Source: Eledone cirrhosa (lineage: Eukaryota). From it: DNA of 64,000 nucleotides. The DNA lies in NCBI GenBank assembly GCA_964016885.1, contig OZ024760.1, positions 11,470,001 through 11,534,000 of the forward strand, read 5' to 3'. Within the stretch, counting starts at the first letter, position 1. Each line of letters starts with the position of its first letter. This document shows, in pieces, positions 1,126-58,195 of this stretch. Position numbers and translations under genes: made by a program. The notes beneath the pieces are model-generated. The model saw nothing but the letters and a program-made list of their open reading frames with translations, had not been told where the DNA came from and did no database searches.

Positions 1126-1199
1126 GCTGTGATATATATTTCAATGACGACACTGGCCACACTGTTCTGTGTGCGAGTGTCGTGACATCATCAGACAGC
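1126..1199 (-). ncRNA. Type I hammerhead ribozyme, intact core
   Basis: Minus strand reads GCTGT-CTGATGA-[stem II ACGACACT...AGTGTCGT]-GAAA-TATATA-TC-ACAGC. Stem I GCTGT/ACAGC is perfect, stem III is palindromic, the triplet is AUC, and ATTAAA follows. Confidence 0.8.
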
Positions 1200-1674
1200 T
1201 TGTTACATAATAAGGTTATGTTTCCGAGGCAATCCAAGTTGAATCGACATGGGAACGGACGAAGTGTGTGCTTTTGGGTTCTTCATCCGTTCCCCTGTGA
1301 GTACCAATTCACCCCCACCGGTATGCGCAGGCGCATGTCCGAAGGAAGTTGACCATTAGCTACCGCAGATTTCAACGAAATTCCGCTTAGTCAGTTCACG
1401 CTCTCAGCCAAACAATGACTCATTTAGGCCTGTACCATAGTTTACTGCTACCCGTCCCGTCTGTGGCAGTCAGCCGAAAGCCAGAGGGGATGGGAGAGTG
1501 TTAGTTTTTAAAGGTTACAATACTACCTCTCACCAAGCATGGACGGTACGACTGACCATCAACTCCCAAGAGAAAATATACTTAATTCTAGGTATCATGG
1601 TTTTACATTGGAAGTTATGAGTGAGAGTTGGAAGTATATATAAATATATATATATATATATATATATTGGGGCA

Positions 1675-1801
1675 CCCACTGATGAATTATAGGAGCCCAC
1701 TTGAATATATATCTATTGATGGTATACAAGCTCCTACATAAATTGGTATAATTTCACCCAAATTGTAGGAATCCTATAATGAAACGAGACGTCCGTCTGG
1801 G
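1675..1801 (+). ncRNA. Type I hammerhead ribozyme with large branched stem II, intact core
   Basis: CCCA-CTGATGA(1679-1685)-ATTATAGGA...TCCTATAAT-GAAA-CG(AGACGTC)CG-TC-TGGG. GUC cleavage is predicted after 1797. It starts right after a (TA)n tract. Confidence 0.8.
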
Positions 1802-2125
1802 AAGAGATATATTAGATATGTCTCATATGAAATAATACAGCCAATTTTCCACGCAATACTTTTAGTTAGCACCCCGAACGCATAATTAGGATTATAATCA
1901 CTTATTTACTAATGTTTGTTGAGTGAGTTGGAATTTGGCCGGAGTATCGCTAAAAAGCTTTCTCCGATATTGTATTTATTATATATATATATATTTATAT
2001 ATATATATATATATATATATATATATCCAAGGAGTGTAACGTTAAGTTCGTGTAGGTTCACCCTGGTGAGCACTCAATGTTTAGGTTCTCGTAGGTGTAG
2101 AGCTAGACAGGGTGTAAATATAATA

Positions 2126-2310
2126 AATGTTTCTACTATTGGCACAAGGCCAGCAATTACCCAGTACATTACTGGTACTTTATTTTATCGACTCCGTAAG
2201 GATGAAAGGCAAAGTGAACCTCGGCGGGATTTGAACTCACACCGTAAAGGGGCGTAACTCTATGCTGCAAAGCATGGCGTCCGACCTTCTACTGATAATG
2301 CCAATCCCCC
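2126..2310 (-). mobile_element. tRNA-derived SINE (family S1, short subtype) with 16-bp TSD
   Basis: A-box-like TGGCATTATCAGTAGA, B box GAGTTCAAATCCC and core GCCTTTCATCCTTACGGAGTCGATAAAATAAAGTACCAG. The direct repeat GGGTGTAAATATAATA lies at 2110-2125 and 2311-2326. Confidence 0.9.
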
Positions 2311-2326
2311 GGGTGTAAATATAATA

Positions 2327-2500
2327 CAGGGACGATTTGTTCTTTTTGTTCTCATTACGTTTATTGATTGGTGAGGCGCGTTTCGCCATCTATCAGCTCA
2401 ATTCGGGCCAGATCGATACAGAACGAACCTTGAGCTGATCAATAGCGAAAATCGCGTCACCAATCAATAAACCTAATGAAGATTTAACAAATCGTCCTTA
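2327..2500. mobile_element. MITE-like imperfect inverted repeat
   Basis: Termini GGACGATTTGTT/AACAAATCGTCC and inner arms CATTACGTTTATTGATTGGTGA...TCAGCTCAA / TTGAGCTGA...TCACCAATCAATAAACCTAATG. TA lies on both sides. Confidence 0.6.
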
Positions 2501-2544
2501 TATTATTATTATTATTAGTTCTAGTAGTATTAGTAGTATTACAA

Positions 2545-3430
2545 TTATATATATATATGTGTGTATATATATAAATGTGTGTGTGTGTATATATATAAAT
2601 GTGTGTGTGTGTATATATATAAATGTGTGTGTGTGTATATATATAAATGTGTGTGTGTGTATATATATAAATGTGTGTGTGTATATATATATATGTGTGT
2701 GTGTATATATATATATGTGTGTATATATATGTGTGTGTGTATATATATATATGTGTATATATATATATGTGTGTGTGTGTGTATATGTGTGTTTATATAT
2801 ATGTGTATATATGTGTGTGTATATATATGTATATGTGTGTGTATATATATATGCGTGTGTGTATGTATGTGTGTGTATATATGTGTATATATATATGTGT
2901 GTGTATATATATGTGTATATGTGTGTGTATATATATGTGTGTATATGTGTGTGTGTGTATATGTGTGTATATGTGTGTATATATATGTGTGTGTGTGTAT
3001 ATATATGTGTGTGTATATATATGTGTGTGTGTGTATATATATGTGTGTATGTGTATATATATGTGTGTGTATATATATATATATATATGTATGTGTATAT
3101 ATATATGTGTGTATATATATATATATATATATATATATATATATATATATGTGTGTGTGTGTGTGTGTGTGTGTGTGTGTGTGTGTGTGTGTGTGTGTGT
3201 GTGTGTGTGTGTGTGTGTGTGTGTGTGTGTGTGTGTGTGTGTGTGTGTGTGTGTGTGTATATATATATATATATCTGTGTGTATGTATATATATATATAT
3301 ATATGTGTATATATATATATATCTGTGTGTATATATATATATATATGTTTGTATATATATATATATATATATATATATATATATATATATATATATATAT
3401 ATATATGTGTGTGTGTGTGTATATATACAT
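2545..3430. repeat. Compound (TA)n/(TG)n microsatellite
   Basis: Direct inspection. It explains the YIYI/VCVC/HTHT ORFs. Confidence 0.95.
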
Positions 3431-3431
3431 C

Positions 3432-3611
3432 CCACTGGATGGGCGGGCAGGCCGACACCTCTTCATCTCATTTCTACAGCTGAGTAAACTGGAGCAATGT
3501 GAAATAAAGTGTCTTGCTCAAGGAAACAACACATCACCCGGTCTTAGAATTGAACTCACAATCTTTCGATTGCAAGCCCAACGCTCTAACCACTAGGCCA
3601 TGCACCTTCAC
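3432..3611 (-). mobile_element. tRNA-derived CORE-like SINE (family S2)
   Basis: Minus strand has TGGCCTAGTGGTTAGAGCG (A box) and GAGTTCAATTC (B box), then GTTTCCTTGAGCAAGACACTTTATTTCAC, which resembles the MIR/CORE domain. Confidence 0.8.
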
Positions 3612-55488: not shown

Positions 55489-55661
55489 TGTTTCTACTTT
55501 AGGCACAAGGCCAGCAAATACCCAGTGCATTACTGGAACTTTATTTTACCGACCCCGTAAGGATGAAAGGCAAAGTGAACCTCGGCGGGATTTGAACTCA
55601 GACTGTAAAGGGACGTAACTATGGTAGAAAGCATGGCGTCCAACCCTCTACCGATACTGCC
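55489..55661 (-). mobile_element. S1 SINE with 10-bp TSD
   Basis: ATAAAATAAT at 55479-55488 and 55662-55671, although the flanks are AT-rich repeats. Confidence 0.9.
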
Positions 55662-55816
55662 ATAAAATAATGTAAAACAGATATAAAATAAATAATGCTT
55701 AATGAAAGACTAAGATTAAGAAATGAAAGATGTGGGAAGATGGTCTATACGAGGATTAACATGATGATGATGATGATGATGACGGTGGTGGTGGTGGTGG
55801 TGGTGGTGATTGTCGT

Positions 55817-55905
55817 TGTTTCTACTTTCGGCACAAGGCCAGCAATTATACAGTACATTACTGGTACTTTATTTTATCGACCCCGTAAGGATGAAAGGTA
55901 AAGTT
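55817..55905 (-). mobile_element. 5'-truncated S1 SINE
   Basis: 3' half only. Confidence 0.85.
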
Positions 55906-56155
55906 TAAATAATGATGATGATGATGATCGTCATTATAGTTGTGGGGATGGTGGCGGTGGTGTTAGTGTAATGTGATGAAGTGGTAGGGTGCTAGTGGTG
56001 GTGGTGGTAGTAGGTGATGTGATGGCGGTGGTATGATGGTGAAGGTGGTCGTAGAATGGTGATGGTGTGGAGAAGGAGGCGACGGTGATAAAATGGATAT
56101 ATATAGTTTTAAAATAAGACAAACACAATGATACAAAATCAGTTAACGTTATTAG

Positions 56156-56317
56156 GGGGTCGGACGCCATGCTTTCCAGCATAATTACGTCCCTTTACGA
56201 TCTGAGTTCAAATCCCGCCGAGGTTGACTTTGCCTTTCATCCTTACGGGGTCGATAAAATAAAGTACCAATAATGCATTGGGTAATTGCTGGCCTTGTGC
56301 CTAAAGTAGAAACAATT
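56156..56317 (+). mobile_element. S1 SINE, short subtype
   Basis: B box, core and 3' end. Confidence 0.9.
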
Positions 56318-56338
56318 ATATGTATATATATATATATA

Positions 56339-56533
56339 TAACGGAGGAAATGTGGTAAGGAACCAGGTGGACCATAACGCACCAAAGTACTCAATACTTA
56401 GGGTAGTAGAGTGGGTAATAGGAACGAGTAGGACCCCGACGGCTGAGCTCAAGCCGTATCGACGGCTAATTCAGTCCAGAATTAGCCGTCGATACGGCTT
56501 GAGCTCAGCCGTCGGGGTCCTACTCGTTCCTAT
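56339..56533 (-). mobile_element. TA-embedded family A fold-back element
   Basis: Homologous to 22132-22325. The apex is TTCAGTCCAGAA. Confidence 0.85.
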
Positions 56534-56614
56534 ATATATATATATATATATATATATATATACACATATAATACAGGTGGGTTTCCGTAAAAGATCAGAA
56601 AGAAGCCATTTACA

Positions 56615-56712
56615 TAGGGTACTCAATACGTTAGTCGACAAGAGGTATATATATTTTATTGTAAAAATGACTTGTACAGGACTAGATCTGTTTCATTCGT
56701 ATGAAATCATCA
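56615..56712 (-). mobile_element. Degenerate family B fragment
   Basis: GTACTCAATAC...TACAGGACTAGATCTGTTTCATTCGTATGAAATCATCA. Confidence 0.65.
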
Positions 56713-57910
56713 TATACATTATAATCAAGTTAAACGAAATGTCGAAAGAATGTTTAAAGAAGACACGTGTTTAAGAAAAAATCTGAATATAAATATAAAC
56801 AATGTGTGTATAGTGATAAGATGTTGTTGTTGTCGTTGTTGCTGTTGTTGTAATTTCTGTGATCACGACTATTATTAATATGGCTATTGTTATACATGTT
56901 TTTCTAAGTTTACACTTGTTGTTCGTGTTGTTCTAGATAGTTTACTGGCGAAGATGAATCCTTACAAAGGCTCGTTTTTTTTCAAGTTGGTGTAATTAAG
57001 TGTGTGTATATATATATATATATATATATACATATATATACACACATATATATGTATATGTATGTATATGTATATATATGTATATGTATATGTATATATA
57101 TATATATATATATATATATATATATATACATATATATATACACACATATATACACACATATATATGTATATGTATGTATATGTATATATATGTATGTATA
57201 TGTATATATATGTATGTATATGTATATATATGTATGTATATGTATATGTATGTATATATATGTATATGTATATATGTATATGTATATATATATATGTATA
57301 TGTATGTATATGTATATATATATGTATATATATGTATGTATGTGTATATATATATGTATATGTATATGTATGTATATGTGTATATGTATGTATATGTATA
57401 TATATATGTATATGTATGTATATGTATATGTATGTATATGTATATATATATGTATATATATGTATGTATGTATGTGTATATATATATGTATATGTATGTA
57501 TGTGTATATATATATGTATATGTATGTATGTGTATATATATATGTATATGTATGTATATGTGTATATGTATGTATATGTATATATGTATGTGTATATATA
57601 TATGTATATGTATGTATATGTATATATGTATGTATGTGTATATATATATGTATATGTATGTATATGTATATATGTATGTATATGTATATATGTATGTATA
57701 TGTATATGTATATGTATGTATATATATATGTATATGTATGTATATATATATGTATATGTATGTATATATATATGTATATGTATGTATATATATATGTATG
57801 TATATATATGTATATGTATGTATATATATGTATATGTATGTATATATATATATATGTATGTGTATGTATGTATATGTGTATATATATATGTATGTATAGT
57901 AATAATAATA

Positions 57911-58195
57911 AATGCAGATATCGGATAAGAAGCACTCTACAGTTTGTAGGACTGGAGTATACATAATATATAAGATCAAAAGATGGTTAAAGGAGTTCCA
58001 TGTATTTTATTATGCGAATTTCAAAAATGTTGATTTAAAACTGAACTATCCACAAGTGTTTTTTAACCTTCATATCATATCTTCCTATTTTATCTGATGA
58101 AAACACAAATGTTATTACATGATGATATTTGTTTTTGAAATGCGCATAATAAAATACATGGAACTCTTTTAACCATCTTTTGATCTTATATATAT
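57911..58195 (+). mobile_element. Family C element with intact hammerhead (58086-58156)
   Basis: TATTTTAT-CTGATGA-stem II-GAAA-TGCGCA-TA-ATAAAATA, with the same inverted layout as 21680-22015. Confidence 0.85.

Follow-up and report, generated by a model that had tools for sequence, protein, structure and literature searches.

Hammerhead ribozyme motifs beside TA repeats of the Eledone cirrhosa genome as probable 3′ ends of truncated Penelope-like elements

In a 64-kb stretch of the genome of Eledone cirrhosa (contig OZ024760.1, positions 11,470,001 to 11,534,000 of the forward strand, hereafter the window), hammerhead ribozyme motifs are numerous next to runs of TA. The window is AT-rich and consists of about 60% simple repeat. 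This raises the question of what the motifs belong to and how they came to lie there. The sequence-only reading of the window had described twelve intact type I hammerheads as a dense array of short ribozyme-carrying elements. The analysis presented here led to a different answer. Very probably, 10 of the 13 intact motifs now recognized are the 3′ ends of families of Penelope-like elements (PLEs) of the Hydra clade and of the Neptune type, and the pieces in the window were left by cutting of TA repeats and copying of short 3′ stretches of the elements.

The motifs were searched for with a type I descriptor that comprised stem I, the CUGANGA box, stem II, the GAAA box, stem III or a palindrome, a UH site, and the second strand of stem I. 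It was relaxed twice after the window had been seen, whereby the number of matches increased from 4 to 12 and then to 13, and it admits one mismatch in stem I, a palindromic stem III, and a mismatch in stem II. Because the descriptor was tuned on the window, the controls are important. All 13 matches of the final version have both boxes, the UH site and stems I–III in the type I order. They comprise the twelve hammerheads listed previously and one that had been overlooked (C3 at 16082 on the minus strand). The previous reading had also taken them for unrelated in sequence, but they group into seven clusters, i.e., family B with four members, family A with three, family D with two, and families C, E, F and G with one each. 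In the loci collected from elsewhere in the genome, 391 matches formed 41 clusters. The motif frequency was far above that of dinucleotide-shuffled sequence, as no match of the final descriptor was found in 100 shuffles of the window (1-kb blocks), and none of eight decoy cores yielded a match with the second version. A genome sample of 59 evenly spaced 10-kb regions (590 kb of the 3.0-Gb genome) contained 43 motifs, in comparison to a mean of 0.1 in 20 shuffles. When the rule for stem III was dropped, 29 of 32 matches in the sample still had a palindromic stem III (23 of them perfect), compared with none of the 14 matches from 30 shuffles. The hammerhead model was absent from the best 150 of the 783 Rfam matches of the window, a list dominated by microRNA models on microsatellites.

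It could be argued that AT-rich DNA with many fold-backs matches a descriptor tuned on it by chance, and a few matches in the genome sample do look spurious (L149, minus strand, 6572; the satellite in L132 under a variant core). The probability of this explanation is practically negligible in view of the shuffle controls, the palindromes that had not been enforced, and covariation in the stems. Compensatory pairs in stem II of 54 distinct family B copies are G-C in 23, A-U in 21 and G-U in 7 cases and, at another pair, U-A in 37 and C-G in 14 cases; these copies were picked by their downstream sequence only and represent related subfamilies, not independent events. As far as sequence and pairing can tell, the type I hammerhead motifs beside the TA repeats are real, and cleavage is predicted for them.

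The link to TA runs turned out to be real and directional, and it clearly exceeds the background. In the window, 12 of the 13 motifs are located at most 250 nt upstream of a run of at least five TA units, whereas this is true for only 41% of 589 control GAAA sites. In the genome sample, the respective values are 37 of 43 motifs versus 18% of 7409 control sites. The sample density of 73 motifs per Mb (bootstrap range 41–110) corresponds to about 218,000 motifs in the genome (122,000–330,000). This estimate is likely to be low, because a motif resembling a hammerhead, in which one additional base follows the first core box, escapes the descriptor; it was observed about 208 nt downstream of a coding PLE (GIY-YIG end) in L162 (~6189–6750, plus strand) and in L163. 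A core pattern that covers only the families with a short stem II and a six-base palindrome matched 114,884 times in the whole genome, versus 9,278 times for the reversed control. The exact 29-mer of family B has 41,012 copies genome-wide, and the exact 26-mer of family A has 29,603.

With 203 motifs per Mb, the density in the window is about threefold higher than the genome mean, as would be expected if the window were a special ribozyme array selected by the host. However, the density is raised because the window is richer in TA (19.8% versus 4.2% in the genome). The number of motifs per TA array is the same in the window (0.079) and in the genome (0.086), with a Spearman coefficient of 0.60 across the 59 regions, and many copies are truncated or have a mutated core. 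Selection for an array is therefore hardly conceivable, and the earlier notion of a dense local array could not be upheld.

The origin of the motifs became apparent from copies elsewhere in the genome, which have fixed 3′ ends in common and 5′ extensions of varying length. For family A, L407 contains a hammerhead, the tail, an uninterrupted frame of 758 amino acids (aa), an untranslated region (UTR), and again a hammerhead, with a period of 5966 nt. The parents of family B are L321 (period 3747 nt) and L324 (583 aa), and those of family D are L245 (period 3865 nt) and L246. The elements of these three families have one open reading frame (ORF), containing the motifs DKT, YRDD, CxCX5C, CxxC and CxH, and they lack a cysteine pair in the GIY-YIG core, which is a feature of the Hydra clade. 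The RW(R) motif is present as RWR in families A and B; the N-terminus of family D was not recovered. For family F, L240 contains an inverted hammerhead, a hammerhead in the pseudo-long-terminal repeat (pLTR), ORF1, a frame for reverse transcriptase (RT) and endonuclease (EN), and a further hammerhead, with a period of 4383 nt. The family F protein has Pfam matches to RVT_1 (E 3.3e-6; 27.4 bits, below the cut-off of 29.6) and to GIY-YIG (E 8.6e-7), carries a CX2-5CxxC linker before the C-terminal GIY-YIG domain as well as DKG, and is 44–46% identical to the protein of L159, which itself was named Neptune by motif. In all four families, an RT and a GIY-YIG endonuclease are linked to the hammerhead end. 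In family H, a Hydra-type endonuclease, and only this domain, was found 450–690 nt upstream in 5 of 14 matches. Partial tandems of the pLTR, an inverted 5′-truncated copy and an optional tail, which are features of endonuclease-containing PLEs, were also found.

By their sequences, 10 of the 13 intact motifs are thus ends of families with longer coding PLE copies, three of them assigned to the Hydra clade (A, B and D) and one to the Neptune type (F), the latter by motifs and with a linker that is also common to Nematis. The pieces in the window would then be ordinary 5′-truncated insertions. Several results weigh against this interpretation. In Pfam searches with the Hydra-type proteins, family A reached only an E value of 0.019 for GIY-YIG, below the cut-off, and families B and D had no match. 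As Pfam misses these proteins, the clade assignment is based on the motifs, on tblastn of families A and B against PLE proteins including a Pfam-confirmed one (E 6e-7 to 2e-9), and on a match by eye to a published alignment. No coding parent was found for families C, E, G and I, where G was not the subject of any search, and C, E, I and K were not searched by pattern. This absence carries little weight, because families A and B had likewise been classified as non-coding, which was rejected when unbiased pattern searches led to their coding parents. Furthermore, a Neptune-type PLE with two ORFs (L157–L164, e.g., L159:2370-4721), which is young and abundant and of which many 784-aa frames are intact, terminates at TA runs, and the descriptor detects no hammerhead in it, so that the motif appears to be dispensable for spreading. 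In addition, the fold of minimum energy differs from the hammerhead for several single motifs, and 45 of the 54 family B copies have A-U at 10.1–11.1, although G-C has been reported to be conserved there in PLE hammerheads. The 784-aa Neptune-type element was also considered as parent of the window families and was rejected, as it has a 3′ end of its own and no hammerhead by the descriptor.

Families C and E differ from the others. Family C forms head-to-tail non-coding units of 700–706 nt with two intact hammerheads in L064 and L079, and the longest ATG frame has 56 aa. Family E is represented in L197 by a non-coding head-to-tail unit of about 1.25 kb with frames of at most 72 aa, in which only one hammerhead was seen. 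From their sequences, both look like retrozyme-like, non-coding tandem units, and they are probably dependents that borrow the enzymes of coding PLEs; families G and I are unplaced. Taken further, the motifs might belong to an independent system of ribozyme retroelements that are short, non-coding and located in TA repeats, and to which coding PLEs only lend their enzymes, and the lack of a found parent for G and I would agree with this. Yet families A, B, D and F, which account for 10 of the 13 intact motifs, represent the ends of coding elements, in family H an endonuclease is located upstream, and the 5′ ends are scattered, as expected of truncation. Such a system would fit a minority of the families only, and we regard it as very unlikely. 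Of the earlier proposal, the derivation from PLEs and the tie to (TA)n were retained, but the separate system of short elements was not, since only C and E look like non-coding tandem units.

In the comparison of copy ends, from which the rows for families E and F were dropped (simple repeat and short interspersed element (SINE) in the references), each family has two fixed 3′ ends, with the exception of family C, which has only one. One is a junction at a TA run about 20–180 nt past the predicted cut, and the other is the end of a tail 40–170 nt further downstream. As the hammerhead is located so close upstream of the junction, nearly every truncated copy carries one, which explains the numbers of motifs, not selection for an array. 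The 5′ ends are scattered among the copies. In head-to-head pairs of family B, exactly one arm has a tail in 15 of 15 cases, and the fold-backs in the window show the same one-tail pattern by eye. Among 99 family B copies, chosen by the exact downstream 29-mer so that very short insertions may be missed, 89 read through the whole core and 78 keep both boxes in register. The 5′ ends in this set did not accumulate at the cut, as only 4 of 99 fall between −7 and +10, i.e., 0.0022 per base in comparison to 0.0013–0.011 upstream.

For the Poseidon PLE of Anolis it has been reported that both strands of AT-rich DNA are cut and extended by the protein, and that the tail is bounded by two internal RNA sites at which copying starts (PMC11167929). 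The fixed 3′ ends, the tails, the inverted arms and the read-through at the cut site fit this internal-priming mechanism. By analogy, the RT/GIY-YIG enzyme would probably cut TA repeats and copy only the last few hundred bases of the element RNA. It would nick both strands of AT-rich DNA, and copying would begin at two sites within the RNA, at the boundaries of the tail, one of which would be used per DNA strand. The template was probably uncleaved or re-joined RNA, because most family B copies span the whole core. Cleavage by a single motif is predicted to be poor, and to improve with the element's protein or in dimers formed via the palindromic stem III; for 13 of 13 motifs, the homoduplex of this stem from two copies is more stable than its hairpin.

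Alternatively, the same elements could have spread with the ribozyme in a central role, i.e., tandem transcripts would be cut to monomers and joined into circles that serve as templates, as modelled in PMC4209133. This would also yield copies that read through the cut site, and it would agree with the partial tandems, with the strong conservation of the core and the palindromic stem III across the 41 clusters, and with the circular RNAs shown for retrozymes of mussel, coral and axolotl. In contrast, catalytic mutants of the Poseidon hammerhead insert normally in vitro, RNA-seq reads with an end at the cut are lacking, and the ribozyme requires the protein for cutting (PMC11167929); moreover, a Neptune family free of the motif is abundant in the present genome. 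We therefore consider templating by circles unlikely, and internal priming on uncut or re-joined RNA is preferred.

The copies in the window illustrate the pattern. In family A, a hammerhead at 9145–9201 (minus) lies in a tailed element (~9063–9203) that corresponds to the 3′ end of the Hydra-clade PLE with the intact parent L407, and another at 52317–52367 (plus; predicted cut after 52361) lies in a tailed element at 52312–52451 with a hairpin at 52388–52409. The third, at 44041–44095 (minus; arm 44027–44093), is an inverted arm without a tail, next to which the arm at 44098–44229 (plus) has a tail and a G12>A mutation in the core. Decayed relatives are a fold-back with a truncated first core box at 16817–16961 (tail hairpin 16921–16943, plus), a diverged fold-back at 44638–44785, in which the minus arm has G5>A and the plus arm bears the tail (hairpin 44748–44769), and a family A-like copy lacking C3 at 56615–56712 (minus). 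Family B is represented by a diverged hammerhead at 16446–16509 (minus; element ~16412–16513), which is about 80% identical to the parent L321, and by three further hammerheads. The one at 42081–42150 (minus; arm ~42041–42223) is an inverted arm without a tail; the one at 42244–42311 (plus; 42220–42438, hairpin 42357–42379) has a tail and corresponds to the 3′ end of the Hydra-clade PLE in L321 and L324; and the one at 42637–42705 (plus; arm ~42594–42743) has no tail and is accompanied by an inverted tail arm at 42500–42573. In family D, an inverted arm with a tail at 21641–21790 (minus; hairpin 21700–21727) is truncated within the ribozyme and neighbours a hammerhead at 21907–21977 (plus) in an arm without a tail (~21788–22010), the 3′ end of the Hydra-clade PLE with the parents L245 and L246. 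The other family D hammerhead, at 58086–58156 (plus; arm ~58027–58195), is accompanied by an inverted tail arm at 57911–58027.

The minimal hammerhead of family F at 24688–24724 (plus; element 24652–24876) belongs to the pLTR of the two-ORF Neptune-type PLE and is 97–99% identical to L240. The insertion sits within a long compound microsatellite array of TA units with regular interruptions (22735–26958), and a similar array is found at ~39300–41800. The remaining intact hammerheads are those of family E at 1126–1199 (minus; element ~1075–1643, predicted cut after 1131), which has a palindromic stem III, of family C at 1675–1801 (plus; element 1668–1979, predicted cut after 1797), which has a long stem II, and of family G at 16027–16092 (minus; element ~16001–16098), which is the one overlooked before and has no assigned parent. 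Family H has an inverted arm with a long tail at 37540–37726 (minus; hairpin 37619–37690) and a hammerhead with A6>G in the core at 37946–38058 (plus; arm 37923–38108), and truncated or decayed H-like pieces were observed at 12585–12674 (plus) and ~17760–17840 (minus). Family I forms a fold-back at 38537–38894, in which the minus-arm hammerhead (~38661–38750) lacks G12 and the plus arm lacks the first core box. Both H and I have intact relatives. The four copies that had been called core-mutated from the sequence alone (37946, 38660 minus, 44098 and 44651 minus) indeed carry these defects.

Family K differs in that a fold-back at 22135–22324 consists of two 3′ halves of hammerheads (GAAA, a stable 6-bp stem III, UC, and the second strand of stem I) with one tail. 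Further fold-backs of the same kind are found at 33381–33570, 43398–43511, 56341–56530 and 58760–58951, and a tail only at 38409–38485. Nine half-hammerheads of this family were counted in the window and 15 in the genome sample, and a U3-A8 core is present in 6 of 8 long copies. Copies of family K are very abundant, and most of them stop 15–35 nt upstream of GAAA. A scan with the U3-A8 core yielded 29 matches in the genome sample versus 0–3 in shuffles; most stem from one AT-rich satellite (L132), and about five families look real. Further families with this core were observed at L100:7083, L107:3181, L122:7507 and L258:735.

A motif with a scrambled order was also found. It consists of a stem III strand, UH, a stem I strand, GAAA, the other strands of stem III and stem I, and CUGANGA; stem II could not be placed. 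Eleven distinct copies were present in 1.78 Mb of loci, in comparison to none for four decoy cores. Stem I shows compensatory changes, and a pseudoknot is possible. Full copies are L102:5773 (minus), L159:6186 (plus) and L188:1405 (plus), and the window contains the 3′ part of a 5′-truncated copy at 5263–5378 (minus). The motif may be related to the 'HHR_half_core' noted for Naiad_Ovul (PMC8557442).

The tails of several families open with a hairpin closed by ACUC/GAGU, namely in the Hydra families A, B, D and H, in E, I and K, and in three further clusters. With a narrow search expression, it was not detected in the Neptune family F, in C and G, and in eight other clusters. Family G shows a GCUC/GAGC version of the hairpin by eye. 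A similar stretch, again by eye, is found at the end of the entry that directly precedes Hydra-1_Obim in the supplement of PMC8557442.

Other features of the window include fold-back islands without a full hammerhead at 2330–2497, 4877–5013 (with a CUGAUGA box at 4971), 9807–9863, 17974–18051 and 33097–33264, which probably represent the inverted ends of further PLE families. A dispersed repeat about 190 nt long, presumably SINE-like from its appearance, has copies that are 84–92% identical at 2123–2310, 4447–4594, 13602–13792 and 16219–16405, the last of which adjoins the family B copy at 16412 on its 3′ side, and further copies at 36499–36642, 44274–44447, 55488–55662 and 56153–56316. A 125-aa frame at 10468–10845 (plus), which we take to resemble the restriction-like endonuclease end of R2-group non-LTR elements, and a 127-aa frame at 31899–32282 (plus), which we assume to be like the C-terminus of a CR1-like long interspersed element, had no Pfam match. 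An ORF of a PLE with at least 120 aa was not seen in the window, where the ORF listing is crowded by simple repeats; the only trace is a short remnant of a Hydra-type GIY-YIG endonuclease at 63755–63997 (minus), 54% identical to that in L007.

Taken together, much of the DNA between the TA repeats of this genome seems to be debris of several recently amplified PLE families, which repeat masking would tend to hide. As the class of elements and the target were known, the surprise is limited to the scale. Since young parents are still intact, start sites are fixed, and natural variants number tens of thousands, the role of the hammerhead in PLEs and the RNA signal read by the Hydra enzyme become testable, and the natural variants amount to a mutational scan of dimer-type hammerheads. 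A more far-reaching view would be that no denser hammerhead load has been described so far than that of this genome, with about 200,000 motifs, of which tens of thousands have one palindromic stem III in common, that same-strand copies in long host transcripts dimerize and cut host RNA, thereby forming a genome-wide RNA-cutting layer, and that the ACUC/GAGU hairpin is the handle of the Hydra enzyme, setting two start sites, one per DNA strand, and copied by non-coding dependents. This view is doubtful, and we would put it forward only as a speculation with a small chance of being correct.

Hammerheads in PLEs have already been published (PMC4209133), as has the targeting of (TA)n by Hydra elements, including that of Octopus (PMC8557442). 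In the literature searched, we did not find the scale, the single tail per inverted pair, the tail hairpin common to several families, and the abundant U3-A8 core variant. A survey of cephalopod hammerheads was not found there either, and passages of PMC12602865 and PMC8967140 did not mention ribozymes; most subscription papers were outside this scope, as were the supplements of PMC4209133, PMC7229834 and bioRxiv 10.64898/2026.07.22.740005, which could hold cephalopod counts that bear on the scale.

According to PMC8557442, Hydra-clade PLEs combine a preference for insertion into (TA)n with hammerheads, Hydra-1_Obim of Octopus bimaculoides being one of them. Families A, B and D resemble them in the single ORF with RT followed by a C-terminal GIY-YIG domain, DKT, the CxCX5C linker, CxxC and CxH, the hammerhead near the 3′ end, and the insertion into (TA)n. 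The Hydra elements tend to be shorter than 3 kb, which is not a rule, whereas families A, B and D are longer due to long UTRs. The published Hydra elements also have RWK, in contrast to RWR in families A and B, and families A, B and D have far more copies. The hammerhead row of Hydra-1_Obim differs in sequence by eye from the hammerheads of these three families. Family F shares the CX2-5CxxC linker with Neptune-type PLEs, but has a separate upstream ORF1 of 476 aa from stop to stop.

The minimal hammerheads of metazoan PLEs described in PMC4209133 are located in pLTRs, have a low activity in vitro, and have a stem III that favors the dimer. Those found here share with them the type I order, the short palindromic stem III, the many sequence families per genome, the prevalence of single truncated copies, and inverted pairs 100–700 bp apart, as well as the U3-A8 variant, known from the Cercyon elements of Schistosoma. 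In contrast, G10.1-C11.1 is often replaced by A-U or U.U, and stem II has up to about 95 nt. The count is about 2×10^5 here versus about 2,000–9,000 in that study, obtained with a different descriptor. In the literature compared, the counts are highest for Xenopus tropicalis, with about 9,000 minimal motifs, and for axolotl, whose much larger genome contains up to 120,000 retrozymes.

The Poseidon element of Anolis carolinensis belongs to another clade, and the likeness concerns the tail between two RT start sites, the cutting and extension of both strands, the AT-rich target, and an uncleaved RNA template (PMC11167929). The tails found here have 40–170 nt, and neither the strict rule that an inverted pair has one tail nor the tail hairpin common to several families appeared in the available Poseidon account. 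Animal non-LTR retrozymes, finally, are dependents of PLEs, and family C resembles them in that tandem units without coding capacity carry a type I hammerhead each and occur beside autonomous PLEs (PMC7229834; bioRxiv 10.64898/2026.07.22.740005). Only families C and E fit this type, and their units of 700–1250 nt are mostly dispersed and truncated.

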